A stretch of DNA of 64,000 bases from a virus (IMGVR_UViG_2718218131_000011:1-64000); one strand, 5' to 3'; numbered from the stretch's first letter, positions 1-62,056 are shown. A program made the numbers and translations. Notes: generated by a model from the sequence alone, not told the origin.

Positions 1-1014
1 ATGAAAACCGCCACTGCGCCGTTACCACCGCTGCGTTCGGTCAAGGTTCTGGACCAGTTGCGTGAGCGCATACGCTACTTGCATTACAGCTTACCAACCG
101 AACAGGCTTATGTCCACTGGGTTCGTGCCTTCATCCGTTTCCACGGTGTGCGTCACCCGGCAACCTTGGGCAGCAGCGAAGTCGAGGCATTTCTGTCCTG
201 GCTGGCGAACGAGCGCAAGGTTTCGGTCTCCACGCATCGTCAGGCATTGGCGGCCTTGCTGTTCTTCTACGGCAAGGTGCTGTGCACGGATCTGCCCTGG
301 CTTCAGGAGATCGGAAGACCTCGGCCGTCGCGGCGCTTGCCGGTGGTGCTGACCCCGGATGAAGTGGTTCGCATCCTCGGTTTTCTGGAAGGCGAGCATC
401 GTTTGTTCGCCCAGCTTCTGTATGGAACGGGCATGCGGATCAGTGAGGGTTTGCAACTGCGGGTCAAGGATCTGGATTTCGATCACGGCACGATCATCGT
501 GCGGGAGGGCAAGGGCTCCAAGGATCGGGCCTTGATGTTACCCGAGAGCTTGGCACCCAGCCTGCGCGAGCAGCTGTCGCGTGCACGGGCATGGTGGCTG
601 AAGGACCAGGCCGAGGGCCGCAGCGGTGTTGCGCTTCCCGACGCCCTTGAGCGGAAGTATCCGCGCGCCGGGCATTCCTGGCCGTGGTTCTGGGTTTTTG
701 CGCAGCACACGCATTCGACCGATCCACGGAGCGGTGTCGTGCGTCGCCATCACATGTATGACCAGACCTTTCAGCGCGCCTTCAAACGTGCCGTAGAACA
801 AGCAGGCATCACGAAGCCCGCCACACCGCACACCCTCCGCCACTCGTTCGCGACGGCCTTGCTCCGCAGCGGTTACGACATTCGAACCGTGCAGGATCTG
901 CTCGGCCATTCCGACGTCTCTACGACGATGATTTACACGCATGTGCTGAAAGTTGGCGGTGCCGGAGTGCGCTCACCGCTTGATGCGCTGCCGCCCCTCA
1001 CTAGTGAGAGGTAG
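1..1014 (+). CDS. intI1: Class 1 integron integrase IntI1 (tyrosine recombinase), complete 337 aa
   Basis: Translation [29 protein letters not shown]... with C-terminal [16 protein letters not shown] recombinase motif matches IntI1 as I recall it; ORF starts at window position 1. Confidence 0.95.
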
Positions 1015-1191
1015 GGCAGCGCAAGTCAATCCTGGCGGATTCACTACCCCTGCGCGAAGGCCATCGGTGCCGCATCGAACGGCCGGTTGCGGAAAGTCCT
1101 CCCTGCGTCCGCTGATGGCCGGCAGCAGCCCGTCGTTGCCTGATGGATCCAACCCCTCCGCTGCTATAGTGCAGTCGGCTTCTGACGTTCA

Positions 1192-1216
1192 GTGCAGCCG
1201 TCTTCTGAAAACGACA
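1192..1216. repeat. 25-bp IRi terminal inverted repeat of class 1 integron
   Basis: GTGCAGCCGTCTTCTGAAAACGACA is the reverse complement of the IRi sequence TGTCGTTTTCAGAAGACGGCTGCAC. Confidence 0.8.
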
Positions 1217-1567
1217 ATGGAGGTGGTAGCCGAGGGTGTGGAAACACCCGACTGCCTTGCGTGGTTGCGGCAGGCGGGTTGCGACACGGTGCAGGGTTTC
1301 CTGTTCGCCAGGCCGATGCCGGCGGCGGCCTTCGTCGGCTTCGTCAACCAATGGAGGAACACCACCATGAACGCCAATGAACCGAGCACCAGTTGCTGCG
1401 TGTGCTGCAAGGAAATCCCGCTCGATGCCGCCTTCACGCCGGAAGGGGCCGAGTACGTGGAGCATTTCTGCGGGCTGGAGTGCTATCAGCGCTTCCAGGC
1501 GCGGGCCAGCACTGCGACCGAAACCAGCGTCAAACCGGACGCTTGTGATTCGCCGCCGCCAGGTTGA
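1217..1567 (+). CDS. tnpM: TnpM / urf2 C-terminal EAL-domain remnant
   Basis: 116-aa [31 protein letters not shown]... starting immediately after IRi, as in Tn21 where In2 interrupts urf2. Confidence 0.75.
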
Positions 1568-1692
1568 GGCATACCCTAACCTGATGTCAGATGCCATGTG
1601 TAAATTGCGTCAGGATAGGATTGAATTTTGAATTTATTGACATATCTCGTTGAAGGTCATAGAGTCTTCCCTGACATTTTGCAGGGAATTCC
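1568..1692 (+). promoter_or_regulatory. res resolution site region of Tn21 family
   Basis: Intergenic segment directly upstream of tnpR containing TGTCAGATGCCATGTGTAAATTGCGTCAGGATAGGA-type subsites; position as in Tn21/Tn501. Confidence 0.55.
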
Positions 1693-2253
1693 ATGACTGG
1701 ACAGCGCATTGGGTATATCAGGGTCAGCACCTTCGACCAGAACCCGGAACGGCAACTGGAAGGCGTCAAGGTTGATCGCGCTTTTAGCGACAAGGCATCC
1801 GGCAAGGATGTCAAGCGTCCGCAACTGGAAGCGCTGATAAGCTTCGCCCGCACCGGCGACACCGTGGTGGTGCATAGCATGGATCGCCTGGCGCGCAATC
1901 TCGATGATTTGCGCCGGATCGTGCAAACGCTGACACAACGCGGCGTGCATATCGAATTCGTCAAGGAACACCTCAGTTTTACTGGCGAAGACTCTCCGAT
2001 GGCGAACCTGATGCTCTCGGTGATGGGCGCGTTCGCCGAGTTCGAGCGCGCCCTGATCCGCGAGCGTCAGCGCGAGGGTATTGCGCTCGCCAAGCAACGC
2101 GGGGCTTACCGTGGCAGGAAGAAATCCCTGTCGTCTGAGCGTATTGCCGAACTGCGCCAACGTGTCGAGGCTGGCGAGCAAAAGACCAAGCTTGCTCGTG
2201 AATTCGGAATCAGTCGCGAAACCCTGTATCAATACTTGAGAACGGATCAGTAA
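1693..2253 (+). CDS. tnpR: Serine resolvase TnpR
   Basis: 186 aa, N-terminal [11 protein letters not shown] catalytic serine motif and C-terminal HTH; Tn21 TnpR-like. Confidence 0.95.
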
Positions 2254-2255
2254 AT

Positions 2256-5222
2256 ATGCCACGTCGTTCCATCCTGTCCGCCGCCGAGCGGGAAAGCCTG
2301 CTGGCGTTGCCGGACTCCAAGGACGACCTGATCCGACATTACACATTCAACGATACCGACCTCTCGATCATCCGACAGCGGCGCGGGCCAGCCAATCGGC
2401 TGGGCTTCGCGGTGCAGCTCTGTTACCTGCGCTTTCCCGGCGTCATCCTGGGCGTCGATGAACTACCGTTCCCGCCCTTGTTGAAGCTGGTCGCCGACCA
2501 GCTCAAGGTCGGCGTCGAAAGCTGGAACGAGTACGGCCAGCGGGAGCAGACCCGGCGCGAGCACCTGAGCGAGCTGCAAACCGTGTTCGGTTTCCGGCCC
2601 TTCACCATGAGCCATTACCGGCAGGCCGTCCAGATGCTGACCGAGCTGGCGATGCAAACCGACAAAGGCATCGTGCTGGCCAGCGCCTTGATCGGGCACC
2701 TGCGGCGGCAGTCGGTCATTCTGCCCGCCCTCAACGCCGTCGAGCGGGCGAGTGCCGAGGCGATCACCCGTGCTAACCGGCGCATCTACGACGCCTTGGC
2801 CGAACCACTGGCGGACGCGCATCGCCGCCGCCTCGACGATCTGCTCAAGCGCCGGGACAACGGCAAGACGACCTGGTTGGCTTGGTTGCGCCAGTCTCCG
2901 GCCAAGCCAAATTCGCGGCATATGCTGGAACACATCGAACGCCTCAAGGCATGGCAGGCACTCGATCTGCCTACCGGCATCGAGCGGCTGGTTCACCAGA
3001 ACCGCCTGCTCAAGATTGCCCGCGAGGGCGGCCAGATGACACCCGCCGACCTGGCCAAATTCGAGCCGCAACGGCGCTACGCCACTCTCGTGGCGCTGGC
3101 CACCGAGGGCATGGCCACCGTCACCGACGAAATCATCGACCTGCACGACCGCATCCTGGGTAAGCTGTTTAACGCTGCCAAGAATAAGCATCAGCAGCAG
3201 TTCCAGGCGTCAGGCAAGGCCATCAACGCCAAGGTACGTCTGTACGGGCGCATCGGTCAGGCGCTGATCGACGCCAAGCAATCAGGCCGCGATGCGTTTG
3301 CCGCCATCGAGGCCGTCATGTCCTGGGATTCCTTTGCCGAGAGCGTCACCGAGGCGCAGAAGCTCGCGCAACCCGATGACTTCGATTTCCTGCATCGCAT
3401 CGGCGAGAGCTACGCCACCCTGCGCCGCTATGCACCGGAATTCCTTGCCGTGCTCAAGCTGCGGGCCGCGCCCGCCGCCAAAAACGTGCTTGATGCCATT
3501 GAGGTGCTGCGCGGCATGAACACCGACAACGCCCGCAAGCTGCCAGCCGATGCACCGACCGGCTTCATCAAGCCGCGCTGGCAGAAACTGGTGATGACCG
3601 ACGCCGGCATCGACCGGCGCTACTACGAACTGTGCGCGCTGTCCGAGTTGAAGAACTCCCTGCGCTCGGGCGACATCTGGGTGCAGGGTTCACGCCAGTT
3701 CAAGGACTTCGAGGACTACCTGGTACCGCCCGAGAAGTTCACCAGCCTCAAGCAGTCCAGCGAATTGCCGCTGGCCGTGGCCACCGACTGCGAACAATAT
3801 CTGCATGAGCGGCTGACGCTGCTGGAAGCACAACTTGCCACCGTCAACCGCATGGCGGCAGCCAACGACCTGCCGGATGCCATCATCACCGAGTCGGGCT
3901 TGAAGATCACGCCGCTGGATGCGGCGGTGCCCGACACCGCGCAGGCGCTGATAGACCAGACAGCCATGGTCCTGCCGCACGTCAAGATCACCGAACTGCT
4001 GCTCGAAGTCGATGAGTGGACGGGCTTCACCCGGCACTTCACGCACTTGAAATCGGGCGATCTGGCCAAGGACAAGAACCTGTTGTTGACCACGATCCTG
4101 GCCGACGCGATCAACCTGGGCCTGACCAAGATGGCCGAGTCCTGCCCCGGCACGACCTACGCGAAGCTCGCTTGGCTGCAAGCCTGGCATACCCGCGACG
4201 AAACGTACTCGACAGCGTTGGCTGAACTGGTCAACGCTCAGTTTCGGCATCCCTTTGCCGGGCACTGGGGCGATGGCACCACATCATCATCGGACGGACA
4301 GAATTTCCGAACCGCTAGCAAGGCAAAGAGCACGGGGCACATCAACCCAAAATATGGCAGCAGCCCAGGACGGACTTTCTACACCCACATCTCCGACCAA
4401 TACGCGCCATTCCACACCAAGGTGGTCAATGTCGGCCTGCGCGACTCAACCTACGTGCTCGACGGCCTGCTGTACCACGAATCCGACCTGCGGATCGAGG
4501 AGCACTACACCGACACGGCGGGCTTCACCGATCACGTCTTCGCCCTGATGCACCTCTTGGGCTTCCGCTTCGCGCCGCGCATCCGCGACCTGGGCGACAC
4601 CAAGCTCTACATCCCGAAGGGCGATGCCGCCTATGACGCGCTCAAGCCGATGATCGGCGGCACGCTCAACATCAAGCACGTCCGCGCCCATTGGGACGAA
4701 ATCCTGCGGCTGGCCACCTCGATCAAGCAGGGCACGGTGACGGCCTCGCTGATGCTCAGGAAACTCGGCAGCTACCCGCGCCAGAACGGCTTGGCCGTCG
4801 CGCTGCGCGAGTTGGGCCGCATCGAGCGCACGCTGTTCATCCTCGACTGGCTGCAAAGCGTCGAGCTACGCCGCCGCGTGCATGCCGGGCTGAACAAGGG
4901 CGAGGCGCGCAATGCGCTGGCCCGTGCCGTGTTCTTCAACCGCCTTGGTGAAATCCGTGACCGCAGTTTCGAGCAGCAGCGCTACCGGGCCAGCGGCCTC
5001 AACCTGGTGACGGCGGCCATCGTGCTGTGGAACACGGTCTACCTGGAGCGTGCGGCGCATGCGTTGCGCGGCAATGGTCATGCCGTCGATGACTCGCTAT
5101 TGCAGTACCTGTCGCCACTCGGCTGGGAGCACATCAACCTGACCGGTGATTACCTATGGCGCAGCAGCGCCAAGATCGGCGCGGGGAAGTTCAGGCCGCT
5201 ACGGCCTCTGCAACCGGCTTAG
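2256..5222 (+). CDS. tnpA: Tn3/Tn21-family transposase TnpA
   Basis: 988-aa ORF directly downstream of tnpR in the same orientation, ending inside the terminal inverted repeat. Confidence 0.95.
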
Positions 5223-5626: not shown

Positions 5627-6187
5627 ATGAAAACAATCGAACAAAAAATTGAACAGCACCGTAAGTGGCAGAAGGCAGCCAGAGAACGAGCGATCGCTCG
5701 GCAACGGGAGAAGTTGGCTGATCCGGCCTGGCGAGAATCTCAATATCAGAAAATGCGGAATACTATCGACCGCCGTATCGCTAAACAGAAAGAGCGCCCA
5801 CCAGCCAGCAAAACGTGGAAAAGCGCGGTAAAAATAAAATCTCGTGGCTTGAAGGGACGAACACCGACGGCGGAGGAGCGGCGCATAGCCAATGCTCTTG
5901 GCGCTCTCCCCTGCATTGCCTGCTATATGCATGGAGTAATATCTGAAGAGGTGTCTCTGCACCATATCTCCGGTCGTACCGCGCCTGGTTGTCACAAAAA
6001 GCAATTGCCACTTTGTAGATGGCACCACCAGCATGCAGCACCGGCTGAAGTAAGAGAAAAATACCCCTGGCTGGTCCCTGTTCATGCCGATGGTGTGGTT
6101 GGAGGCAAGAAAGAATTCACCTTGCTGAACAAGTCAGAGATGGAGTTGCTGGCTGACGCCTATGAGATGGCAAACATAATGCACTAA
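5627..6187 (+). CDS. ref: Recombination enhancement function Ref (HNH endonuclease family)
   Basis: 186 aa starting MKTIEQKIEQHRKWQKAARERA; Cys/His-rich HNH-like core CYMHGV...LHHISGR...CRWHH; recognised as P1 Ref. Confidence 0.85.
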   Translation: MKTIEQKIEQHRKWQKAARERAIARQREKLADPAWRESQYQKMRNTIDRRIAKQKERPPASKTWKSAVKIKSRGLKGRTPTAEERRIANALGALPCIACYMHGVISEEVSLHHISGRTAPGCHKKQLPLCRWHHQHAAPAEVREKYPWLVPVHADGVVGGKKEFTLLNKSEMELLADAYEMANIMH

Positions 6188-6376
6188 TAAATATATTATT
6201 TTTAATCTGAAATAATTGACAACTGACAAGTGACTTCAGTCAGAATCATCACATGCCCGGTACGGATGGATCCCTTTTCAAATATTCCATGGACGGCACA
6301 GTCTGAGTACCGGGCGCTACCTTCAGTTGTATTGCTAAGCCGCCGCTGGTGGCTTTTCTTTTTTATAAGGGGCGCT

Positions 6377-7018
6377 ATGGATAAGAAAATATGCGTTGTT
6401 TCGATGAGCGTCGGCAAACCGGCGTCAATGACTGCCGCATGGATCAACAATGAGCTGATAATGGCTGAGCGGACCAGCTACCCTGAACGCCGCCGCGATA
6501 TGGAACTCCAGCTGCTGCGCGAATTGCGAGAAAAAGAGGAAAAGGGTTTTATCGTGCTGGTGGAAGAGGAAAACAGCTTTATTACGGGTCGAGTTGGCCA
6601 GCGTGTAAGGTTGCGCGATCCCTTCATGAACGGCAGGCCGGTACTAATTGAAGCAATGCAGATTTACAAGGAGCTGGAACGCCAGAAAGCGATCAAGTTA
6701 CCGCGCAAAGAATCCGGCAAATACATCCTCCACCAAAGCATCTTCGATTCCGAACACGACAAAAAAGGCGATGAATTTTTCAACATCAACTGGAGCGAAA
6801 TAACGACAGAGCACGTTCTGTCGTTGTTATGCTGCTTCGCAACGGAATATAACAACGTTGCAAGCGCCGACTACATCAGGGCAATGGCTGGAGAAGTTGA
6901 GGCTCGCCAGGAACCATCGTTACTAAGCCCTCTGATTAACATAATTCGCGGAACCCAATGTCTAGCCGACAAGCGAGTTCCTCAAGGCTTACTTACCGGC
7001 AAAGAAAACTATTTATAA
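6377..7018 (+). CDS. Hypothetical protein at the position of P1 mat
   Basis: 213-aa ORF from MDKKICVV; backbone-like base composition; no recognisable motifs. Confidence 0.4.
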   Translation: MDKKICVVSMSVGKPASMTAAWINNELIMAERTSYPERRRDMELQLLRELREKEEKGFIVLVEEENSFITGRVGQRVRLRDPFMNGRPVLIEAMQIYKELERQKAIKLPRKESGKYILHQSIFDSEHDKKGDEFFNINWSEITTEHVLSLLCCFATEYNNVASADYIRAMAGEVEARQEPSLLSPLINIIRGTQCLADKRVPQGLLTGKENYL

Positions 7019-7047
7019 TTAATTACGTCAGTAGCCAATAGAGATTT

Positions 7048-7080
7048 TTGTTGTGGAACAAAAATATATATTTTACAATC
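7048..7080 (+). promoter_or_regulatory. Putative sigma70 promoter of the two-gene cassette
   Basis: TTGTGG (-35), 17-bp spacer, TACAAT (-10) about 30 bp upstream of the cassette start; GGGGGA ribosome-binding site before the ATG. Confidence 0.3.
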
Positions 7081-7108
7081 TAGTAACTTTGGGTGGGGGA
7101 TTATTACA

Positions 7109-8149
7109 ATGATGAATATTAAGCCGCTGAAAATTAGGAACAAGGTCATGAAGCCTCATAAAGCATTATTAAACCCTGACCTAACCGCAAGGAATGTACT
7201 TACATACAGTCATTGGGATTTTGTCGAACTCTGGTTAAAGCGAAACGAAAAAGATGAGGCTCTTTTTTATTGGGAGCAAGCAAAAGTATTTAATCAGGCG
7301 GCCAATGGTTTACCCAACCAATCAGCCCCACTTTTGCACTATTATTCATTCATGAATGCAGTAAAGGCGTTACTTTCATCTCGCAATATAAACTTCAAAC
7401 AGCATCATGGTGTTGCTAGGGGTGAAAATGCAGCCCAAATTGATAACTTATCTGATATAAAAGTAAAAATAAAAAATGAGGGTATACTTCCGTCTTTTTC
7501 AAAATATATTGACGGCACCTCTCATGAGGGGGTGTACAATATAAAAAACCTTTTTTCTGGATTGCCATATATTCATCGTACATATTGCCTTACTTATGAT
7601 GTAACTGATGATATATTTATTCCACTGATCGATGCTGAGTTCGTTTTGAATGAGTCAGACAATAGCCTGTTTTTCACTGCGATTTTATCCAAGGATTTTC
7701 GGTTCGACACAGTTTTCGACATTCTACCGCCAGCGTTCGAATTGTTTGAAAGAGAAAAGTACAAAATAAAATCAGTAGAATCATTACTTGATTATAATGA
7801 AAATCAATCGTCCAACATGCCGCAATTAACTGAATTTCATAAAAAAATAAGAAGAAATCTTTACTATATCAATGGCGCAGAGACTCTTTGGTATCTCAAA
7901 CGTAAAAACAATCAATCTGAGCATACTTCTGTTTCAATATCGCCATTGGTTATAACCCTAGCAGCTATGCATCGATTAAGTGAGCTATGTCGGTATGACC
8001 CACTTAAGCTAAGACAGTTACTAAATGAAAAAGAAAACTGGATTATTGCTGAATTTATTCAACAATCTCCGTCACAGTTTATAGATGCAATTTCATCTGA
8101 AATTACTGGACACCAATTTCTTATCCCAAACGTAAGGTCTGCTTCTTAA
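7109..8149 (+). CDS. Hypothetical 346-aa protein, cassette component A
   Basis: Long ORF in strongly AT-rich DNA with a good RBS; predicted largely helical, no TM segment; no family recognised by eye (a weak R-x6-H element near residue 250 is the only HEPN-like hint). Confidence 0.7.
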   Translation: MMNIKPLKIRNKVMKPHKALLNPDLTARNVLTYSHWDFVELWLKRNEKDEALFYWEQAKVFNQAANGLPNQSAPLLHYYSFMNAVKALLSSRNINFKQHHGVARGENAAQIDNLSDIKVKIKNEGILPSFSKYIDGTSHEGVYNIKNLFSGLPYIHRTYCLTYDVTDDIFIPLIDAEFVLNESDNSLFFTAILSKDFRFDTVFDILPPAFELFEREKYKIKSVESLLDYNENQSSNMPQLTEFHKKIRRNLYYINGAETLWYLKRKNNQSEHTSVSISPLVITLAAMHRLSELCRYDPLKLRQLLNEKENWIIAEFIQQSPSQFIDAISSEITGHQFLIPNVRSAS

Positions 8150-8658
8150 TGAATATATATATCGCATGCGCTTTAACTCATGTTCCAAGGGAAATTTTCC
8201 ATGAGTACAGTAATTGGATTCACAGCCTTGCAAAAGGTCTATCTCAAAATAACAACGTAAAATATGCTTTGATAAATAGTGACCCAGAATTATCAAAGCG
8301 CCCTGAAAGTAACAAATCTAGACTTTGTTACATTTGGGACAGAGATATGGTTGAGAAATCTGATGTAATAATTGCAGAATGTAGTTTTCCATCAACAGGG
8401 CTAGGAATAGAGTTGCAGATTGCTGAACAGAAGAACATTCCTGTAATCATCTGTTATAAAGATTATGGGATAAATAAAACTAAAACCATTGAATACGTGA
8501 ATCCAGATGAGACTACCCATAATCTACAAGTTGGCGAGGGTTTCATTTCTCATATGGTATTAGGACTACCAAACATCCTTGATGTCATATTATGTAAAGA
8601 TATTGATAACACATGCAGGAAGCTAAAAATACTGTTAGATATGATTAACCATAATTAA
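8149..8658 (+). CDS. Nucleoside 2-deoxyribosyltransferase / DNPH1-like fold protein, cassette component B
   Basis: 169 aa; N-terminal MNIYIACAL strand and PSTGLGIELQIAEQKNIPVI motif resemble the NDT/DNPH1 signature (GLGMELGYA in Lactobacillus NDT, recalled from memory); start codon overlaps the stop of component A (TAATG). Confidence 0.65.
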   Translation: MNIYIACALTHVPREIFHEYSNWIHSLAKGLSQNNNVKYALINSDPELSKRPESNKSRLCYIWDRDMVEKSDVIIAECSFPSTGLGIELQIAEQKNIPVIICYKDYGINKTKTIEYVNPDETTHNLQVGEGFISHMVLGLPNILDVILCKDIDNTCRKLKILLDMINHN

Positions 8659-8688
8659 AAATTAACACCCACTTAAGATGTCTAAACC

Positions 8689-8708
8689 AGCCCGGTATTA
8701 ACCGGGCT
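8689..8708. terminator. Stem-loop between the convergent cassette and lxc-like gene
   Basis: AGCCCGGT-ATTA-ACCGGGCT 8-bp perfect stem; no clear T-tract. Confidence 0.35.
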
Positions 8709-8716
8709 AGACAAAC

Positions 8717-8965
8717 TTAATCAGCATTCAGGAGCAATGCATTATCTATGATGATTTGCTCCCATTCTTCGAATGCCCGGTCGCGGACGCCCTGGGGAAC
8801 GCTGTTAGTTTTGAAATCGACGACCGTACGCCATTTCCCGTCCGGACGGTACATGCGCAGAGCTTTACTTCCCCCCTCCCTGCGCACCTCAACGTTATGC
8901 TTATCAGCAAACTCTTGTAATGCTCGTAGCGTCCCATGCTTTACTGTGTAGTATCGCTTTTTCAA
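8717..8965 (-). CDS. Small protein at the P1 Lxc position
   Basis: 82-aa ORF last in the darB-containing leftward operon; name by position and size only. Confidence 0.45.
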   Translation of the reverse strand: MKKRYYTVKHGTLRALQEFADKHNVEVRREGGSKALRMYRPDGKWRTVVDFKTNSVPQGVRDRAFEEWEQIIIDNALLLNAD

Positions 8966-9402
8966 GTTTTCTCTCCAGCCTGTGCTAAGGCTTCAACTTC
9001 CAAATCGTAAGACTCAAACTCATAGTCCTGGTCGTCAACCTCTTCAGGCACTGGCAGTAAATGCCAGGCTGAGTATATCTGACCATTATCAAAACGCTCC
9101 TGGCTGTAGAGCGTCGCGGCTATGAGCGTCAGCGCCGGGCGGTCATAACGGTAAATTTTGCGAACGTCACGGTCAACGAGACGACCGAAATTACCATAAC
9201 CGCGCTCCAGTAATAATTTTTTAATTTCCGGCCAGTATGGACCATAGCTGCGGTACAGACGGGGATTTTTCAGTAATCGCCCGCGTAGCCCTGACAGGAA
9301 GAAATCAACGTATTCGTCTTCTGTCTTTCCTAACAACGCTGTACGGAGCACCGCCTCAAGATATGTTTTATTCGGTTTTATTGTATCAGATAGTGTGGCC
9401 AT
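8962..9402 (-). CDS. P1 Ulx-like protein
   Basis: 146-aa ORF between darB and the lxc-like gene on the same strand; name by position and size only. Confidence 0.45.
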   Translation of the reverse strand: MATLSDTIKPNKTYLEAVLRTALLGKTEDEYVDFFLSGLRGRLLKNPRLYRSYGPYWPEIKKLLLERGYGNFGRLVDRDVRKIYRYDRPALTLIAATLYSQERFDNGQIYSAWHLLPVPEEVDDQDYEFESYDLEVEALAQAGEKT

Positions 9403-9435
9403 ATTATGCGACGCCCGGCGAACCGGGCGCTCCTG

Positions 9436-12400
9436 TTATGCGTATTGTTGGATGACGGCCAGAACGTCCGCCACGTTGTGTTTTGTCTCGATAATCCACC
9501 AGTTACCCGGGAAATCGCTGTTCTTCGCCTTCGCTGGCAGCCAGCGAGCGCCGAATTTCGCCTTGATTGCGTCTTTCGCACGGAAAAGAATGCCTTTCAT
9601 GCCGGAGGCTTCCTGAAGCCCAAATACCTCGCCAGCGGCGAATTTTGGTGCGTACATCATCTTCAGGTCGGCGGTGGATACGCGATAATTCAGACCAAGA
9701 GACTGAGCTATGCTGGTGGCATCACCCTGTATTGATGATAACTCTTCTTGTTTCTCGTTTCTGGCGGCAATTTCTTCCTCCGTGATGTTGCCAAGGGCCA
9801 GGTTTATCCGATCAGCGTCTGCCTGTTTCTCTTCATCGGTGCGACCGGCAAGTGCCGTGTTAATTCTCTGCAATATCTCCACATGATTCTTGCGCATGCT
9901 GAGCAATTCCGGCGTAACCTCGTTAAGGTCCACCAGCCCAAGAATGGCAAGGTCAGAAAACATTGATACCAGGTTGTAGGTCATGCGATAGCTGAGTTGA
10001 CCATAGGCTGATGGCAACTTCACCGCATCCATTTGATAGGCATCCATAAATTTAGAGCCGTCGTTTACGACATCCGCAATTGCAGGTGTGATTTTCCCTG
10101 TGGTGGCGGCCTCCCTGATTGCTGTTACCCACGATTGAGTCAGCGCGGCGACTGCATGATTCAGATTGGCTTCCCGTTCTGCTGCAATGCGCGCACTTGC
10201 TGCGTCCATTGCCTGCTTGATCTCGTCTTTATTGCTGTAAATGCCAATGGTGCCAAACTGTGCTGTGGTGATCTCATAATCTGACGCCCGGAACTCATTG
10301 GTACCGAAAATGGCATTGGTGACTTCAAGTTCAGAATCCCCGTTACGAGTAGCCCCCTGGCTTGTTTTTTCCGGCATTCTGGCGATCGCATCCGCTATTT
10401 TCTCCTGAATTGCTTCAGGGGATAGCGTATCTCCGTATGACGCGATTACATCGCCATAATTGGAGCCAAACAATTCAACCAGGAATGTTTCTGCCGAACG
10501 GATCTGGCGGTTATTCCCTTCCGACATCATACCAAGCACCCATTTTGCAATTGACGACTTCAGCGCGCCGTCACGGCGATCCGGGTAAATCGCATGCTTC
10601 AGTGGGTCCGTATAGGTACCAACAAAATCAATGCTATAGCCTGACTCTGTAGTCTGAACGCCGTATGAGTCAGTGATTTTGATCATGCCGCGCTGCTGGA
10701 AACGGTAGAAATCGTCACAGGAAATGATGTCGTTAATCCCGGCGATGGAGACGCCACCACTGATTTTCTGCATAACAGCATCTTCATCGGGAGTTACATC
10801 AACCTGTTTATCCAGCGTCTTCACATCCCAGTTACCCGATTTGGTGCCTTTGAAGGTAAAGATGATCTCCACGTCTGCGCGCTGGCTGTCGAAGTCCAGC
10901 GACTTAATGCGAAAGATATCACCGGCACAATCGTAGTATTGGCCTACACGCCATGAGCGATCGCCGATAACAAGGAACTCATTCGCATGGTTAACCAGAT
11001 CAGGATCAACATCCAGAATGCCTTTATTTATTGCATCCTCCACCAGCGGGCGCAGGCGTTTGATATCCGTCGCGGCCTTCTGAGTACGGTTCAATAATTT
11101 CTCATAGCGGGAGATGGCCTGAGAGATATTAGCCTTGCGCTGAATGGCGCTTTTCAACGACGCGCGATACTGTGCTAACAACATACGGTCTGTGTGATGG
11201 ACACTCCCCCAGCGGGCCTTCCAGTCTGCGTTATCCGCTGCCTTGGCCATTGCCGCCTGTTTGAATTTAGCTACCTCGGCGGTGGTCTTTTCAAGTTCCG
11301 CTTTGCTTCGCTCTAATTCAGCGGTAAGTACCTCCACATCCTCGCCAGCTGCGTGCTGCGCCTTGATGTAGTTCTGAAGGTCGATAGTAGCCTGTTCTTT
11401 CTGGCGAGCGCGTTTCGCAGCTTTCGCCTTATCCATTTGAACCTGCATCATTGCCAGACGTTCGCCGTCATCCTTCGCGGTATACATCTGCATTTCGATC
11501 ATGTCATTGGCGTCGGCGTTCTCCATTTCTGACTTATCTGAACGGAGGATATCGGAGATCCAGCCTGCTTTACGCTTCAGCGTCTTCAGTCGGTATTCAT
11601 CGAAAGACCCCTTGCCGCAGTAGTAGTGAACGCGAACGCTTGCACGGTTGGAACCAACTCGGGCACCGCGACCGTTACGCTGTGCGATACTGGCTGGTGT
11701 CCACGGCAACGTCAGGTGGTGGATATCCGTCGTTCCTCGATGCAGGTTGATACCCACCTCTGCCTTTTTGTTGCAGATGATGATCGGAGTCCGGCCCTCC
11801 TGGAAGTCGGCTGCAATCTTTTCCAGACCGCCCAACGACATTTCATTTTGCTGCGCGATATAGGCGTCATACAGAGCCATTTGCTCGTTGTATTTCGCTA
11901 TCTGTGCATCTGTTGGTTCATCCGGTAGCTCTTTCGGCGGTTTAACCGCTTTCAGTTTCTTACCGGTTTTACCTGCCTCGGCAACCGTCTGAGCATTCAG
12001 GATCCCCACCTTTGAAGGTTCAAGGTTTAGAGCATTGCAGATAATGCGCTTGAGCTTCTGGTGCTGCGTTTTTTCATCGGTGAAGATGATTTGCTTACCT
12101 TCCGGGAAAAACTCCTTCAGCGTGGCGATCAGCTTCGCGTATTTCGGCGTAACGGGGTGAGTTACGGTCTGTTCGTCAATGCCAAACCTGGCCAGGCGCT
12201 TATTCACTTCCTGCTCGAACGCTTCCGGAACCTGCAACTGAATAAACTCGCCCTTATCTATCAGGGAGTATTGCGATTGCTGCGTGATTGAATCATCACT
12301 GTCGTCGTCTTCGCTGGTGGCTTGTTTAGGCAAACTGTCCGCCAGCTGCTGCACCGCATCGGCGTACTCCGGCAGGAAACGATAGGTGATCCGGCGATAG

Positions 12401-15400
12401 TACAGGTCCATGTCAGTACATACGCGGTCCATATCCCTGATTATTGAGAAGATCGGACGGGCTTTCTCGTGCTCAATCACGCCGTCTTCATTGACCGAGG
12501 TCGTTACGCCATTGTTGGCTTTTGCCGCCGCTTCCGCCTGCTGACGCAATTCTTCATACGCCGCCAGTTGTTCTTCAGTAAGTGGTGCATCCTGCTGGTG
12601 TTCGTCCAGCTCCGGGATCTCCACGGTATCCTTAACGTCTTCCGCCGTTTTAAGCGTTACCCAGCGATGGAATATACCGCGCAGCGCATCAAGGTTTTCA
12701 AAGCCCACCAGCGCCATTTTTTCTTCAACTTCACCGCTGATTTTCTGTACCGTTTCCAGCCTGGTCTTGCCGAAGAATTTAACGAAGTCATCAGGACCGT
12801 AGATCCCCATGTTCTGCCAGTATTCCTTCGGCAGAACATGAGAAAGCATGTTGTATGCATCGATCGGGGTGTTAACGACTGGCGTTGCAGTCAGGAGAAC
12901 CGGCCCGCGCCCGCCATTCTTTTTCATCAGGTACGCGTTTTTAATTGCCATATCTCGCGCCGATTGCGCCACCGCGCTGGTGGGCAGATAGGCCAGTTGT
13001 GACGCTTCGCGACCATTTTTATAGCTATTGCGGTAGTTGTGACCTTCGTCAGCGATCACACTATCGAAGCCCATATCCTCAAAGTACGGATACTTCTCTG
13101 CTTTTTCGGTGCCGGTATCTGAATACTCCGACAATACCCGGCGACGCGCAGCCTCTTTGCGGTGGGAGTCGGAGTCCATTGCGCTGGCTACGCGCCCGGC
13201 GGCAACGAAGTCATAAAGCATATCCTGTGCATGCTCATCTACGGTGTCATCACGTAGCGGAATGCGGGCGTATTGTTCTTTGGTAAACACGACTGCACGG
13301 TAATTTGAGTGCGGGATCGCGTTCATCCGCGCCGTGATAGTGGCTTCATCTGCCAGCTTAAGAGCATCGCGCATAACTGGAGTGCCATCAGTACCAAGAA
13401 CAGGTTTACCGTTCTCATCGAGCACCGGCACCTGGCGAATCTGATCGCCATCCATCAGCACATCAAGACCGACGAACAGGTAGTTACTGAATGCCTCTTC
13501 ACTCAGGAACTCTTTTGCTTCGTAATACCAGTTTTCCAGCACTGCTTTAGGCACTACATAAGCAGTACGGGTGGAGCGACCGTTCTCATAGTTGAACGCC
13601 TCAAGCGCCAGCGCGGTCGTCGTTTTACCCAGCCCGGTGCCGAAGCCCAGGATGCCGCGCCCATCTTCGGACAGTCGGCGCACCTCGCTATTCTGGTAAT
13701 CAAATGGCTGGCGCTTACCGCTTAATCCCTTCAACCCAAGCGGATCGCCAGAGTGTTCATACGGGATATTGCTATTGAACACATCGTTGTATTTGGCAAC
13801 CAACTCATCGTAGCGATCGTGCGTCTTGATCCACTTATTGAACTGGTCCTCAAGCAGTGCCATCTGCTCGCGGTAGCCGTTCGCCGTCGCGCTATCTTTA
13901 CCACCGATACGCGCACCATTGAGATACTTTTCCAGCTGTGCCGGGAACCCGGTCGCGTTTTCACCTGATTTACGGTCCCACTCATAGCGGATCTCGCCTG
14001 TTTCTTTATCCTTGCGCTGGACGACACCGTATCGGTGCCCGACGAACAGACCATCACCACCGTGATAGGTGTCAGAAACCATTTCGTCGCCTTCCAGCTG
14101 CACTGACTGCACATAGCGCAGATCCGGATAGCCGTTTTCCTGCAAAAACTCCAGAATGACGGAGCGGTCGAACCAACGGCTATTGAGCTTAAAGCGGATA
14201 TTCTCTGCTGGCGTCTTGATGCGCTTCTCTTCGATCGCTGCCAGCTGATTAAGGACGTTGTTCTTTACTGGACCATCGGGGAGCGTGGCGAGAAATTCCT
14301 GTTTTGGAGCTACTATCTCGTTAATGTCGCCGCTGGTGGCGCGGGCGAACGGAACAATCCCGCCATACGGCGAAACCGCAATACCAGGGGTGCTGGCCAA
14401 TAAATTAAGCAACTCTTCATCACTGGCTGGCAGTTCGCCGGTAAACGCAAGGCGGAAATCATCGAGCTGGATTGGATCGCGGGTAAGATCGCTATAGAGA
14501 TAACGCAAGGTGTCCTGATAGCTGGTGGAGTCATAACTTGCGCTGGAATCATGCGTAACCAGATTTCCTGTCAGCTCGTCAGAAATAGTGCCATCCAGCT
14601 TAATTGCACCACGGAAAGCAAACCAAGCGCGCGCACCGCTTCCCGATAATTTAGCTATCGGACCGCGACCGGGGTTACCAAAACGGTCAATCTCTGCCTG
14701 CAAACGGGATACCAGAGAAAGGCGCTGCTGTTCGATTTGTTCAGCACTATGCCCGGCGGCCTTCATATCCTGATATTCAATTAACATCCGGCCAATCATC
14801 GCCCCGCGATACAAGCGTTCACGGTATTTTTCAGGCTGGCTGTTAATCCAGTCCACCAGTTGCACCATATCGTCGCTGATTGATGTGGTGTACTTATCGC
14901 GGACATTTGCCATCTGGGTAAATGTCATGCCGAGACGACCTTCTGTGGTAGTCAGGTTACGCTGAAGAGCCTCCCAGCTATCCGCGCCATAACTGGCAAC
15001 ATCAATCTTCAGCTCCTTCCCGGCATCAGCTTCAATCCAGCGACCACCAGCATATTTTTGCCATACGCCATTAATCAGGCGCATTTCCCCTTCATCAACA
15101 ACATCTGCGGTCGGTGACGGTTCAGCCATATCGAGCAAAGACCAGTCGATACGACTTTCGAAACGATGAATCAGCTTCGCTTTAAGAGCCTGGTTATCAA
15201 TCTGCCCGTCGGCACGAACCTCAATACGCCCCTGGAATCCCTTCTCCTGAGTGCCATGAACAAACCGGCGGCCGTCCTTTTCAAACCACTTGCCAGAAAT
15301 AAACGTTGGCCAAAGCACATTTGCCGATTCAAGAGTGCCTTCATCCACCAGGGGGATTTTCTCAGCCATCTCTGCCGGATGTTTACGCATCAGCACCACA

Positions 15401-16203
15401 TCAACGACCGTACTGGTCCCGTTTGCGTCAAAAGTACCGGTAGGCAAGCGGTGAGCGCCAAGAAATTCAGCTTTACGGGATAGGCGCAGGCGTAACCGCT
15501 TCATGTTTGAACCTGAAACAATGGACGGCGGCACAATCACGCACATGAATCCGCCAGGCTTTATCTTGTCCAACATGCGGAGCATGAAGTAAGACCCCAT
15601 GTCCGTTTCTTCTGCGTAAGGTTTATCGATGTTGCGTGTGTTATCACGACCACCGAACGGAACGTTACCCACCACATGGTCGAATGAATCGTTAGGCGTG
15701 CTTACAGCCAGTTGTTCGAACGGGGAAATCTGTACGCTGTCTTCCGGATGTAACAGCTGGTTTATACGACCGGAAACACTGCTGATCTCAGTCGCGGTCA
15801 TCACCGTGCCAACCGGTTTTGTCTCATTAAAAACGCCGGTGCCCGCCGATGGTTCCAGAGTGTTACCTACGTCCGCGCCGTAGAGCTTCATGATCTCCCA
15901 GACACCTTCAGCTATCGGCTTTGGTGTGTAATATTCGGAGACGGACCCGCCAATGCCGCCTTCACCGGTGTACCCAGCCAGGATCTGGCGCTGTTCATCT
16001 GTCAGTGTCGCGCCGTCCACCAGCGAATTAAGCAAATCTATCGCCTTCTGATTCGCCTCACGGCGCAGTCGGTCATAGCTTTTGCCTTCCACCTTTTCCA
16101 CGCCGTATTTAATCGGCGCTCGGTGAGATGTTATTGCCCTAATGTATTTCAATATTTCGCTGACACTTGAACAGCGAAACACCCCCATAGATAGCTTATT
16201 CAT
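9436..16203 (-). CDS. darB: DarB antirestriction protein (methyltransferase plus helicase domains)
   Basis: 2255-aa ORF, the size I recall for P1 DarB; NVPFGG methyltransferase-like motif and DEGH helicase motif (VIADEGHNYRNS) visible. Confidence 0.85.
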   Translation of the reverse strand: MNKLSMGVFRCSSVSEILKYIRAITSHRAPIKYGVEKVEGKSYDRLRREANQKAIDLLNSLVDGATLTDEQRQILAGYTGEGGIGGSVSEYYTPKPIAEGVWEIMKLYGADVGNTLEPSAGTGVFNETKPVGTVMTATEISSVSGRINQLLHPEDSVQISPFEQLAVSTPNDSFDHVVGNVPFGGRDNTRNIDKPYAEETDMGSYFMLRMLDKIKPGGFMCVIVPPSIVSGSNMKRLRLRLSRKAEFLGAHRLPTGTFDANGTSTVVDVVLMRKHPAEMAEKIPLVDEGTLESANVLWPTFISGKWFEKDGRRFVHGTQEKGFQGRIEVRADGQIDNQALKAKLIHRFESRIDWSLLDMAEPSPTADVVDEGEMRLINGVWQKYAGGRWIEADAGKELKIDVASYGADSWEALQRNLTTTEGRLGMTFTQMANVRDKYTTSISDDMVQLVDWINSQPEKYRERLYRGAMIGRMLIEYQDMKAAGHSAEQIEQQRLSLVSRLQAEIDRFGNPGRGPIAKLSGSGARAWFAFRGAIKLDGTISDELTGNLVTHDSSASYDSTSYQDTLRYLYSDLTRDPIQLDDFRLAFTGELPASDEELLNLLASTPGIAVSPYGGIVPFARATSGDINEIVAPKQEFLATLPDGPVKNNVLNQLAAIEEKRIKTPAENIRFKLNSRWFDRSVILEFLQENGYPDLRYVQSVQLEGDEMVSDTYHGGDGLFVGHRYGVVQRKDKETGEIRYEWDRKSGENATGFPAQLEKYLNGARIGGKDSATANGYREQMALLEDQFNKWIKTHDRYDELVAKYNDVFNSNIPYEHSGDPLGLKGLSGKRQPFDYQNSEVRRLSEDGRGILGFGTGLGKTTTALALEAFNYENGRSTRTAYVVPKAVLENWYYEAKEFLSEEAFSNYLFVGLDVLMDGDQIRQVPVLDENGKPVLGTDGTPVMRDALKLADEATITARMNAIPHSNYRAVVFTKEQYARIPLRDDTVDEHAQDMLYDFVAAGRVASAMDSDSHRKEAARRRVLSEYSDTGTEKAEKYPYFEDMGFDSVIADEGHNYRNSYKNGREASQLAYLPTSAVAQSARDMAIKNAYLMKKNGGRGPVLLTATPVVNTPIDAYNMLSHVLPKEYWQNMGIYGPDDFVKFFGKTRLETVQKISGEVEEKMALVGFENLDALRGIFHRWVTLKTAEDVKDTVEIPELDEHQQDAPLTEEQLAAYEELRQQAEAAAKANNGVTTSVNEDGVIEHEKARPIFSIIRDMDRVCTDMDLYYRRITYRFLPEYADAVQQLADSLPKQATSEDDDSDDSITQQSQYSLIDKGEFIQLQVPEAFEQEVNKRLARFGIDEQTVTHPVTPKYAKLIATLKEFFPEGKQIIFTDEKTQHQKLKRIICNALNLEPSKVGILNAQTVAEAGKTGKKLKAVKPPKELPDEPTDAQIAKYNEQMALYDAYIAQQNEMSLGGLEKIAADFQEGRTPIIICNKKAEVGINLHRGTTDIHHLTLPWTPASIAQRNGRGARVGSNRASVRVHYYCGKGSFDEYRLKTLKRKAGWISDILRSDKSEMENADANDMIEMQMYTAKDDGERLAMMQVQMDKAKAAKRARQKEQATIDLQNYIKAQHAAGEDVEVLTAELERSKAELEKTTAEVAKFKQAAMAKAADNADWKARWGSVHHTDRMLLAQYRASLKSAIQRKANISQAISRYEKLLNRTQKAATDIKRLRPLVEDAINKGILDVDPDLVNHANEFLVIGDRSWRVGQYYDCAGDIFRIKSLDFDSQRADVEIIFTFKGTKSGNWDVKTLDKQVDVTPDEDAVMQKISGGVSIAGINDIISCDDFYRFQQRGMIKITDSYGVQTTESGYSIDFVGTYTDPLKHAIYPDRRDGALKSSIAKWVLGMMSEGNNRQIRSAETFLVELFGSNYGDVIASYGDTLSPEAIQEKIADAIARMPEKTSQGATRNGDSELEVTNAIFGTNEFRASDYEITTAQFGTIGIYSNKDEIKQAMDAASARIAAEREANLNHAVAALTQSWVTAIREAATTGKITPAIADVVNDGSKFMDAYQMDAVKLPSAYGQLSYRMTYNLVSMFSDLAILGLVDLNEVTPELLSMRKNHVEILQRINTALAGRTDEEKQADADRINLALGNITEEEIAARNEKQEELSSIQGDATSIAQSLGLNYRVSTADLKMMYAPKFAAGEVFGLQEASGMKGILFRAKDAIKAKFGARWLPAKAKNSDFPGNWWIIETKHNVADVLAVIQQYA

Positions 16204-19850: not shown

Positions 19851-20019
19851 AAAGACCTCATAAGCGAATTTTTTACGCTCCAGGACAAATACCCATTCAC
19901 AGTCAATACCGACTGACTCGATCCCTTTAGAAGGCACAGGATAATGCAAATCACTTGTTAGCTACGTTTCAAAGATATACATTATTGCTCTAATCATTTT
20001 ATTTTATTAGGTAAGATAA

Positions 20020-20508
20020 GTGGCACAACGCGGTGTAAACAAAGTCATCCTGATTGGTACCCTGGGGCAAGACCCGGAGATCAGGTATATACCAAATGGC
20101 GGCGCTGTCGGAAGACTCAGCATCGCAACGAATGAATCATGGCGCGACAAGCAAACGGGCCAACAGAAAGAGCAGACAGAATGGCATAAAGTCGTTTTGT
20201 TCGGAAAACTTGCTGAAATTGCGAGTGAGTATTTACGAAAAGGTTCTCAGGTCTACATCGAAGGGAAACTTAAAACCCGTAAGTGGACAGATGAGGCCGG
20301 TGTAGAACGCTACACGACGGAAATTATCGTCAGCCAGGGCGGCACCATGCAAATGATCGGCGCTCGCCGTGACGATTCACAGTCCTCAAATGGCTGGGGG
20401 CAATCAAACCAACCTCAAAACCACCAGCAATACAGTGGCGGCGGTAAACCTCAGAGCAACGCCAATAACGAACCTCCAATGGACTTTGAAGACGATATTC
20501 CATTTTGA
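20020..20508 (+). CDS. ssb: Single-stranded DNA-binding protein
   Basis: OB-fold N-terminus [20 protein letters not shown] and acidic C-terminal tail DFEDDIPF. Confidence 0.95.
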
Positions 20509-20741
20509 GAGGGCTGAAAGTTGCTCGATTACTTAAAAATAACTTTACCTAATTGGTGTAAAAAAATGGGCGCAACAAAGCGCCCCAACAATAGAGTTTC
20601 AAATTAATAAAAGGGTAATAAATAACATGAAGTTAAATTGAGAAGAGGCAATTTTATTGCCTCTTCAAAGGTGGCATGAGGGTGCCACCTATATGCGGGC
20701 AGTGACATCACTCCCTTCCCGCATATTCTTACCTACCAAAA

Positions 20742-21854
20742 TTAGAATTGGTAGGTCATACCAACAGCAACGATGTTGTCGGTTGCAACCTCAGATGCTT
20801 TGGTAAATTCACTTTCATCAATCAGGTTGATCTTGTAGTCAACGAAAGCGGACATATTTTTGTTGAAGTAATAAGTCGCGCCTACGTCGATGTATTCAAC
20901 TAGATCCTGGTTACCGAACGCACCAATATTTTCACCGCGAGAGTGCAGGTAAGCGATGGACGGACGCAGGCCGAAATCAAACTGGTATTGAGCAACAGCT
21001 TCAAAGTTTTTCGCTTTGTTTGCGATAAAGTCATCACCGAAGACTGTCATATTCTGAGTTTCAGAATAAGTTGCAGCCAGGTAAATGTTGTTTGCGTCAT
21101 ATTTCAGACCAGTAGCCCATACTTCAGCTGTTTTACCAGAAGCATTCAGAGAGCTTGCATTAGCATAGGATACCTGTCCATCAGTACGGTCAGATTTTGC
21201 ATAAGTTGCGCCAATGCCAAATCCTTCATAATCATAAGTAGCTGACAGACCGAAGCCATCACCATTAGATTCAACTACGTCGCGGCCTTTCCAGTTGTTC
21301 ACTTTTGCAGCACTATCATTTTTACCCTGATACTGCAAAGCAAAGTTCAGACCATCAACCAAGCCGAAGAAATCATTGTTACGATAGGTCGCGACGCCAG
21401 TAGCACGCTGGGTCATAAATACATCAGTCTGAGTCCAGGTATCTCCACCAAACTCCGGCAGCACGTCAGTCCAAGCGCCAACATCATACGCTACACCGTA
21501 GTTGCGACCATAGTCGAGCGAACCATAATCGCCAAAGCGAAGCCCTGCAAACGCAAGACGAGTTTTGTCTTTATCAGAACCTTCAGTTTCAGTACGGTTA
21601 CCTTTAAATTCGTACTCCCACTGACCAAAACCGGTTAACTGGTCATTAATCTGAGTTTCACCTTTGAAACCCATACGAGCATAAGTTTTATCCCCGTCAT
21701 CACTAGCTGAAGAAGAGAAGTAATGCTCTGCATTAACTTTGCCGTACAGATCCAGTTTGTTACCGTCTTTGTTATAGATTTCTGCCGCTTGTGCAGACAT
21801 TGCCATCAGGACTGATGCTGCAACCGCAGAAAGTGCCACTGTGATTTTTTTCAT
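20742..21854 (-). CDS. General bacterial porin, OmpC/NmpC/Lc type
   Basis: 370 aa with signal peptide [40 protein letters not shown] start of mature protein and C-terminal VAVGMTYQF. Confidence 0.9.
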
Positions 21855-22560
21855 TTTTTTGCCCTTTAGATTGAACTTTTCAGTAGAAAAGAGGTCACTG
21901 CGGACAAATGTTTATCTTTTTTGGATTCGTGTTTCAAGTTTTGCAAATAAAAATCAAGGTATTTTTGTGATCAAAATCACAAATAATAACCTTGAAAACC
22001 CAATGGACTATTAGAAAAATCTCAATTCACAGAATAAAAATTGACAAAATAGAACAAAACACAATCAACAATAAGCACAAAAGACAAACAATTAAATTAG
22101 CACAAAAATAATAACTGCAAAAATAGATAGCCTGTTAATTAATAGGGTTTTAATGGATGTGGATTTGAAATCTACTTAAAAAGTAGAGTCAAATTAATTA
22201 CTGTCGATTGGGTATTAAACTGAATCTATATTGTGAGAGTTAAAGACGATGTGTTTTAGTTATACATGTTATTCCCTAAAATGGAGTAGTCTCATCGAAT
22301 TCTGATTAATAACGAGCTAAGCCAATTCATTTTAGTATGTGTATATCTTTACCCTCTGAATATGCAATGACGAAGAGATATTAAACAATATGTAGCTTCA
22401 GGATTGACTCTGGAAGAATTAAAAGATCGGCTAAAGTGTTCAATATGTGGTGAGCGAAACGCAAAAATTAAAATTTTTTGATCTAACATATTAGGCAATA
22501 GCTTGCTTCCATAACCTAAAGCAAGCCACTACGCGTTTACTTTAAGTACACAATTAACAT
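21855..22560 (-). promoter_or_regulatory. AT-rich regulatory region upstream of the porin gene
   Basis: About 700 bp without ORFs, extremely AT-rich, with TTTGAAATCTAC-type elements resembling OmpR boxes of ompC. Confidence 0.35.
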
Positions 22561-22593
22561 ATCAGAACAGATTATTTGTGCACTATCAGGGAG

Positions 22594-22899
22594 TTAATAT
22601 ACGATCTGGTCTACATGATCCCCAAAATCATCGTCGTCCTCATCGCCACCCTCTACTGCTGGCCAATCGACAAACCAGCCAGCGTAAAGATGCAGCGTTC
22701 GGAGAACATCACTTGCGGGAGCATCAAGGGTGTTAACGAATCCCATATAGCTATTGGGATTTGCCCCAGCTATGGCTTCAGCGATCATGTCCTCGGTAAT
22801 GTCACCGGAGATAATGCTTAAACGCCCGGAAACTTCTTCATTATCATCAAATTCGATAATGGCATCTCCGCCTAATGGCGCTGCGATTTTAATCTGCAT
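22594..22899 (-). CDS. Acidic hypothetical protein at the distal end of the darA operon
   Basis: 101-aa ORF co-oriented with the ddrB-like gene; acidic C-terminus. Confidence 0.45.
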   Translation of the reverse strand: MQIKIAAPLGGDAIIEFDDNEEVSGRLSIISGDITEDMIAEAIAGANPNSYMGFVNTLDAPASDVLRTLHLYAGWFVDWPAVEGGDEDDDDFGDHVDQIVY

Positions 22900-46178: not shown

Positions 46179-46195
46179 TCTGCTCTAATAAATTT
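46179..46195 (+). promoter_or_regulatory. C1 operator-like site upstream of the c4-icd-ant region
   Basis: TCTGCTCTAATAAATTT matches the consensus ATTGCTCTAATAAATTT at about 15 of 17 positions. Confidence 0.55.
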
Positions 46196-47837: not shown

Positions 47838-47854
47838 TTTGCTCTAATAAATTT
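47838..47854 (+). promoter_or_regulatory. C1 operator-like site upstream of kilA
   Basis: TTTGCTCTAATAAATTT matches the consensus at 16 of 17 positions. Confidence 0.55.
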
Positions 47855-62039: not shown

Positions 62040-62056
62040 ATTGCTCTAATAAATAT
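62040..62056 (+). promoter_or_regulatory. C1 operator-like site upstream of uhr-rdgC
   Basis: ATTGCTCTAATAAATAT matches the consensus at 16 of 17 positions; coordinates within 1 bp. Confidence 0.5.

Follow-up and report, generated by a model that had tools for sequence, protein, structure and literature searches.

What could a compact pair of genes, set between two conserved backbone genes, be doing for the phage-plasmid that carries it? The question arises from gene A, whose 346-aa product an initial annotation had described as a partner protein of no recognisable family, and from the nucleoside 2-deoxyribosyltransferase (NDT)-like gene B that follows it. Both lie in a stretch of 64,000 nucleotides of viral DNA, referred to here as the window, and the features discussed are collected with their coordinates in Table 1. 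The ORF of gene A is present on the plus strand as originally stated, and the strong ribosome-binding site noted with it is GGTGGGGGA at 7092-7100, 8 nt 5' of the gene A ATG. The good coding signal reported at that stage also holds up, with gene A supported as a real gene by pN/pS and by 758 homologues (E<=1e-3 in a large protein collection). Relative to an allele with 96% identity carried by plasmid pfosA3 (L098), pN/pS is 0.28 for gene A and 0.05 for gene B, with zero stop codons. The gene A family comprises 1,217 cluster representatives among 1.84 billion. The TAA stop of gene A and the ATG of gene B share one base, in the string TAATG.

Upstream of the cassette, a consensus scan found no sigma-70 promoter, and a -10-like TACAAT hexamer, seen by eye, is the sole promoter-like feature in 7019..7108. 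A 16-nt AT-rich inverted repeat also falls in this interval, at 7037-7072 (AATAGAGATTTTTGTT / AACAAAAATATATATT, 88% complementary, with a 4-nt spacer); it could serve as an operator or mark where the mat transcript ends. When the window was scanned with the P1 C1-operator consensus ATTGCTCTAATAAATTT, six matches with three or fewer mismatches were obtained, versus 0.29 expected by chance. None of these operator-like sites stands directly 5' of the cassette, the nearest being that at 6178-6194, upstream of mat. No Rfam match was obtained in 6200-9500.

Cargo between mat and lxc

The window is a P1-like IncY phage-plasmid; across a 3.3-kb region, dozens of plasmids from E. coli and Salmonella match it at 99.5-100% identity. 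Annotation gives the order of the genes as pac-coi-cre-cra-ref-mat-[YaaC-169 aa]-lxc-ulx-darB, and homology to P1 restarts exactly at 8717, the stop of lxc. What lies between mat and lxc differs among P1-like elements. In P1 the interval is occupied by res and mod, the genes of the EcoPI type III restriction-modification (RM) system, plus IS5; vB_EcoM-673R5 and SJ46 have a RelA/SpoT-family protein and a hypothetical protein there, Ro157c2YLVW a hypothetical protein and an HTH protein, and JL22 a single hypothetical protein of 316 aa. The interval is a cargo hot spot of P1-like elements (window 6377-8965 versus L089-L092), and the other mat–lxc cargos are likewise uncharacterised candidates. 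The GC content of the cassette is ~35% versus ~50% in its flanks, and the cassette is found in 105 of 5,426 complete E. coli genomes (~2%), almost always on plasmids, as well as in 76 PLSDB plasmids. Since the content of the slot varies, the GC content is atypical and the distribution is accessory, the gene A-B pair is exchangeable cargo; the reference occupant of its slot, EcoPI, is a defence system.

Two further parts of the window deserve mention. An intI1-like class 1 integron integrase at the start of the window (1-1014) is followed by tnpR (1693-2253) and tnpA (2256-5222) of the Tn21/Tn3 family. This integron/transposon block (1-5222, ~60% GC) is inserted just upstream of ref, so that a resistance-type transposon adjoins the cargo slot; pET6.1-IncY carries a 100%-identical cassette, but a TnAs1-type transposon is arranged differently there. 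A second GC dip, at 20001-24000 (0.43-0.44 versus ~0.51 in adjoining DNA), could be another cargo region of the phage-plasmid.

Table 1. Coordinates of the cassette, its flanking genes and the features discussed in the text (window numbering; residue numbers refer to the gene product).
Feature	Coordinates	Strand	Basis
C1-operator-like matches	6178-6194, 16133-16149, 19984-20000, 46179-46195, 47838-47854, 62040-62056		scan with C1-operator consensus
mat (maturation control), left conserved flank of slot	6377..7018	+	annotation of near-identical plasmids and P1; phrog_1837
Intergenic region 5' of cassette	7019..7108	+	ribosome-binding site, inverted repeat, left end of low-GC cassette
Gene A (346-aa YaaC-family protein)	7109..8149	+	ORF, PF14175, homologues, pN/pS, AF2 model
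N-terminal half of predicted split HEPN-type bundle, residues 35-91	7211..7381	+	helices 35-45, 49-65, 73-91; PLLxYYxxxNAxKxLL
Predicted alpha/beta insert, ~180 aa, residues 100-275	7406..7933	+	between HEPN helix 2 and helix 3
RKNNQSEH, residues 265-272	7901-7924	+	variable insert stretch
C-terminal half of predicted HEPN-type bundle, residues 279-333	7943..8107	+	alignments, model
M-H288-R289-L-S-E-x-x-R295-Y296, family-invariant, end of helix 3	7967-7996	+	alignments, model
C-terminal P-N-V-R tail, residues 340-343	8126..8137	+	clade-specific conservation
Gene B (169-aa nucleoside 2-deoxyribosyltransferase / DNPH1-like)	8149..8658	+	PF05014, Rcl/DNPH1 profile match, pN/pS
Catalytic-type motif P-S82-x-G84-x-G86-I-E88 of gene B	8389-8412	+	family profile, alignment
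lxc, right conserved flank	8717-8965	-	plasmid and P1 annotation, PHROG
ulx, right conserved flank	8962-9402	-	plasmid and P1 annotation, PHROG
darB, 2,255-aa methyltransferase-helicase anti-restriction gene, P1 backbone	9436..16203	-	ORF and annotation

Gene A, a YaaC-family protein with a predicted HEPN-type bundle

Contrary to the initial annotation, gene A does have a recognisable family. It matches PF14175 (YaaC) with E=1.5e-45 and 156.4 bits against a cut-off of 27, residues 34-332 corresponding to positions 18-307 of a profile of 307, and its RefSeq label is YaaC family protein. YaaC (PF14175; B. subtilis YaaC) is a known but uncharacterised family. No papers on YaaC or PF14175 were found in the literature searched, the combination of YaaC and HEPN returned only chance matches (one of them the surname Bar-Yaacov), and YaaC is mentioned neither in the main text of the 2013 HEPN census nor in Rousset 2022. 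An NCBIfam scan gave noise only, and no informative domain fusions were found among longer YaaC proteins.

The AF2 model of gene A (pLDDT 90.1, pTM 0.90) agrees in part with the earlier prediction of a helical protein: it contains ~12 helices but also ~10 strands and is mixed alpha/beta. HEPN models gave zero sequence-level matches to gene A; the assignment to HEPN comes from the model, in which a four-helix up-down bundle with HEPN topology is found. As modelled, the protein is an HEPN-type four-helix bundle split by a family-specific alpha/beta insert of ~180 aa, for which no match to a known fold was found. The 2H phosphoesterase Usb1, considered as a relative with HRT(Y) standing as HxT, was rejected (Foldseek probability 0.1, TM <0.2, no second HxT/S motif).

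Motif conservation was read from an alignment of 21 diverse homologues and from one of 80 genome loci, and gene A carries every family-wide invariant YaaC motif. The conserved motif PLLxYYxxxNAxKxLL spans residues 74-89; the invariant residues of the insert are H100-G101, H156-R157 (within HRTYC), R248 and W261-Y262 (T-L-W-Y); and N310-W-x3-E315-F and the C-terminal P-N-V-R are conserved further on. The family has an invariant His/Arg/Tyr cluster made up of H100, H156-R157, R248 and H288-R289...R295-Y296.

Whether gene A could be a nuclease is a separate matter. Its fold is HEPN-like, and an R-x6-H element, RKNNQSEH, had been put forward in the initial annotation as a hint of HEPN-like activity. 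That gene A is an HEPN nuclease with RKNNQSEH as its active site is highly improbable, the motif being refuted by its lack of conservation. The element is present in none of 20 aligned homologues and is not conserved across the 80 genome loci; it lies in an insert loop, in a region with a 2-residue insertion unique to the gene A protein and with pLDDT <50 at residues 270-273; and the catalytic Rx4-6H motif of HEPN proteins is located elsewhere, at the end of helix 3 (PMC3710099). At the position of that motif YaaC reads HRLSExxRY, with the Arg present and the His absent, and no His occurs 4-6 residues after R289 in the 80 genome-locus sequences or in the window protein. Because the canonical HEPN catalytic motif is absent, RNase activity of gene A is doubtful. 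HEPN proteins of the AF0298 type and AbiV are likewise without the His, and a conserved His of the helix 2-3 insert may take its place (PMC3710099). In YaaC, conservation marks H100, H156 and H288 as candidates for an alternative active-site His.

Gene B and its linkage to gene A

Gene B alone matches PF05014 with E=1.8e-4 and 22.1 bits, below the curated cut-off of 28.8, and all 24 of its aligned relatives match the same family (best 2.2e-8). The gene B family profile matches Rcl/DNPH1 structures at E=1e-4 across the segment that contains the nucleophile Glu, where PSTGLGIELQ of gene B aligns with PSLGVGYELG of Rcl/DNPH1. In the catalytic-type motif (Table 1), G84, G86 and E88 are invariant within the gene B family and S82 is invariant or nearly so. 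The two marks of the DNPH1 superfamily, a PF05014 match and a conserved nucleophile Glu, are found for gene B by way of its relatives and its profile, and gene B is a DNPH1/NDT-superfamily N-glycosidase-like protein that has kept the nucleophile Glu. Since the family has invariant motifs of its own (NSDP, CYxWD and LQxGxG), which are not those of DNPH1, the substrate is not readable from sequence.

The coupling of gene A to its NDT-like neighbour, to which the initial annotation had drawn attention, is strongly supported by a co-occurrence check centred on A and then on B. Among 80 genome loci encoding YaaC relatives, gene B is directly downstream on the same strand in 39, and a gene B family HMM found no partner in the other 41. 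Every locus of the closer YaaC clade (39/39) has the partner directly downstream, and neighbour-joining groups the YaaC proteins that have the partner in a single monophyletic clade of 40, with zero exceptions. In 38 of the 39 loci, the A stop and the B start are separated by -4 to +16 nt, and the pairwise identities of A and B are correlated (r=0.73). For the test centred on B, 80 metagenomic loci with gene B were found and 77 could be assessed; YaaC is immediately upstream in 74 of them. A further one (L106) has only the C-terminal end of YaaC upstream of gene B. L118, with 2.3 kb of upstream sequence, and L149 are the sole assessable loci with gene B and no YaaC upstream, and they could be degraded or re-partnered versions. 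In IMG/VR, gene B was found at four loci in 2.9 million viral contigs, all four with gene A and three of them the same P1-like element. The hosts of the pair belong to at least nine phyla, those named being Pseudomonadota (alpha, beta, gamma), Bacteroidota, Campylobacterota, Myxococcota, Planctomycetota, Nitrospirota, Spirochaetota and Armatimonadota. A and B are a near-obligate two-gene module. Homology to a phage structural or housekeeping protein, or absence of the pair elsewhere, had been named at the outset as evidence against a functional pairing; PHROG yielded no such homology, and A and B co-occur elsewhere.

The partner-linked subclade of YaaC also has conserved residues of its own, for example T158, N341 and R343. 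N341 and R343 are kept only in this clade, while solo YaaC proteins end, for example, in PDAF or PG.R. The P-N-V-R tail is a candidate site of contact with the partner.

Two closely coupled genes in one operon, whose stop and start codons overlap and which are carried on a low-copy plasmid prophage in a slot that otherwise holds the addiction-like res/mod genes, could also be a toxin-antitoxin or addiction module. In such a module, A (as an HEPN-type RNase) or B (as a nucleotide hydrolase) would be toxic, the other would neutralise it, and post-segregational killing would stabilise the phage-plasmid. This seems rather unlikely: most copies of the pair are chromosomal and outside plasmids, neither protein resembles a known antitoxin or has a DNA-binding or MNT domain, and both are strongly conserved, unlike typical labile antitoxins. 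Toxin-antitoxin function and defence of the abortive infection type are nevertheless compatible and not mutually exclusive.

Neighbourhoods, proposed function and known systems

Copies of the pair in other genomes frame the question of function. An E. coli chromosomal copy, 59% identical, lies between BrxR with an integrase and the Dpd genes for 7-deazaguanine DNA modification. The Kangiella copy comes after an AbiTii gene, a metagenomic copy in a lambdoid prophage adjoins a DNA methylase and a HATPase_c_3 protein, and the Myxococcus copy is near integrase fragments. When the two nearest ORFs on each side of the pair were scanned in 39 genomes, the neighbours included type I RM, Gabija (GajA, GajB), a Pycsar cyclase and a dGTPase, as well as MADS, PDC-M19, PDC-M45, Mrr and OLD-like proteins. 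Several chromosomal copies are free of defence neighbours, among them the Aeromonas copy, which has metabolic neighbours only. The Yersinia copy is placed between the tail genes S and V of a P2-like prophage. As a side observation, a Gp49/HTH_37 (HigB/HigA-like) pair and an 8xMP membrane protein are encoded in the same inter-tail-gene region of that prophage (L087 13216-13879), several cargo genes being stacked in one slot.

YaaC genes without the partner are found in comparable company. They occur within type I RM operons as hsdM-hsdS-YaaC (L041 3251-7029), hsdM-YaaC (L035 4445-7038) and hsdS-YaaC (L070 376-2790), and one stands beside a DUF499/HEPN_Swt1 protein (L058 2634-7035); in Rhodoblastus, the A-B pair itself comes directly after hsdR (L047 2695-7530). 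By analogy, these arrangements suggest that the whole YaaC family may be conflict-associated. Since the YaaC loci without a partner are themselves embedded in RM systems, they provide no clean negative control for the defence context. The Bacillus orthologues of YaaC lack gene B, and yaaC of B. subtilis has a conserved chromosomal position near guaB, a hint that the family is not exclusively defensive.

The reading that we consider somewhat probable is that the A-B cassette is a defence or conflict module, directed against phages or other mobile genetic elements and carried as mobile cargo by a P1-like phage-plasmid. The support from defence context is guilt by association. The type of defence would probably be abortive infection or nucleotide depletion. 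A specific division of labour, with A as the sensor or regulator and B as the effector, can be offered only tentatively. In such a scheme, A and B would be translationally coupled and act as a complex, in which A would sense infection, or bind RNA or a nucleotide, and control B. B in turn would cleave the base-sugar bond of nucleotides (dNMP, NMP or NAD-type) and so starve phage replication. The effector role of B is supported by the precedents of retron Ec86 and the type VIII Thoeris protein ThsI. A might also, or instead, be an RNase with an alternative His, as has been proposed for HEPN proteins of the AF0298 type. A narrower version, in which A is a non-canonical HEPN-fold sensor and B selectively hydrolyses phage-specific or phage-induced deoxynucleotides (for example hydroxymethylated dNMPs, the class on which DNPH1 acts), would block phage DNA synthesis and need not kill the host. 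We think this version unlikely, though if true it would give the orphan YaaC family its first function, including its solo members within type I RM operons.

The neighbours of the cassette in the window itself invite a different thought. The adjoining P1 genes darB and ulx have anti-restriction functions, and the cassette rides on phages and prophages, as would be expected if it served the phage in counter-defence or lysogenic conversion, with B destroying the host's immune signalling nucleotides, or nucleotide pools on which its defences draw, and A acting as a specificity factor. Nucleotide-degrading enzymes are indeed a known class of phage anti-defence proteins. Many copies, however, reside in non-prophage chromosomal islands beside defence systems, the IMG/VR viral contigs yielded just the few loci given above, most of them one element, neither protein has a PHROG family, and EcoPI, the reference cargo of the slot, is a defence system. 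We therefore hold a counter-defence role to be quite unlikely.

It is also conceivable that the pair does no more than housekeeping in nucleotide metabolism or sanitation, B being a DNPH1-like hydrolase of non-canonical (d)NMPs and A its regulatory subunit. In favour are the alignment of B with DNPH1/Rcl, listed in the PDB as 5-hydroxymethyl-dUMP N-hydrolase, the metabolic genes that flank some of the chromosomal copies, and the position of B. subtilis yaaC next to guaB. We judge this very unlikely given the patchy, accessory distribution in E. coli genomes, a GC content atypical for backbone, the small size of the family, and the location of the pair, which is carried by P1-like, P2-like and lambdoid elements and found among RM or defence genes.

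For the defence or conflict module that we favour, the present results tie the YaaC family structurally, by way of a model, to HEPN and lock one of its clades to a DNPH1/NDT-like enzyme. They also show the pair occupying cargo or variable slots in elements of the P1-like, P2-like and lambdoid kinds, as well as defence islands, across at least nine phyla. Should defence be confirmed, the nucleotide-depletion class would gain a new combination of sensor and effector, a conserved Bacillus gene family would have a function, and part of the cargo of clinically common, resistance-carrying P1-like phage-plasmids would be explained. The pair is easy to test since E. coli is a native host and the system spans just 1.7 kb.

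Turning to known systems, PADLOC-DB 2.0 gave no match at E<=1 for A or B, neither protein matched a PHROG family, and tblastn of gene A against 50,697 phage records returned nothing. Within PF14175, which it matches over its full length, gene A differs in belonging to a distinct monophyletic subclade that is always trailed by an NDT-like gene, whereas YaaC proteins of the Bacillus type and those embedded in RM operons have no such partner. Set against HEPN-T domains of the AF0298/UPF0332 type (PDB 2hsb), the insert between helices 2 and 3 of gene A is, in the model, a whole alpha/beta module of ~180 aa. HEPN-MNT toxin-antitoxin systems need an adjacent minimal nucleotidyltransferase; no MNT gene was found in the cassette, and the partner is NDT/DNPH1-like instead. 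HEPN anticodon nucleases of the PrrC/RloC type are embedded in type I RM loci, which resembles the position of solo YaaC inside hsdM-hsdS(-hsdR) operons and that of the pair after hsdR in Rhodoblastus. PMC3710099 counts PrrC and RloC among the RNases of the HEPN superfamily. Gene A differs from them in having neither an ABC-ATPase N-domain nor Rx4-6H, and its neighbour in the window is not an RM system.

On the side of gene B, the likeness to DNPH1/Rcl and to nucleoside 2-deoxyribosyltransferases lies in the PSxGxGxE segment and in size (~150-170 aa), and the difference from DNPH1/Rcl in a weak PF05014 score of its own and in the family motifs given above. The NDT-like effector of retron Ec86 (Retron-Eco1) has been reported to deplete adenine derivatives, and the CMP-hydrolase domain of type VIII Thoeris ThsI has been hypothesised to manipulate the nucleotide pool. 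An NDT/DNPH1-family N-glycosidase effector restrained by a sensor component is the likeness proposed between these two systems and the cassette. Retron-Eco1 has a reverse transcriptase and an msr/msd ncRNA, both absent from the cassette, and no reverse transcriptase ORF was found between mat and lxc. Type VIII Thoeris has a TIR protein and a TPR domain; the cassette has neither, and no TIR gene was found in it. In the place of these controlling partners the cassette has a protein of the YaaC family with a predicted HEPN fold. Known kinds of parts, an HEPN-fold protein and an NDT-like N-glycosidase, are newly combined in the pair, which appears to be a candidate defence system absent from the catalogues.
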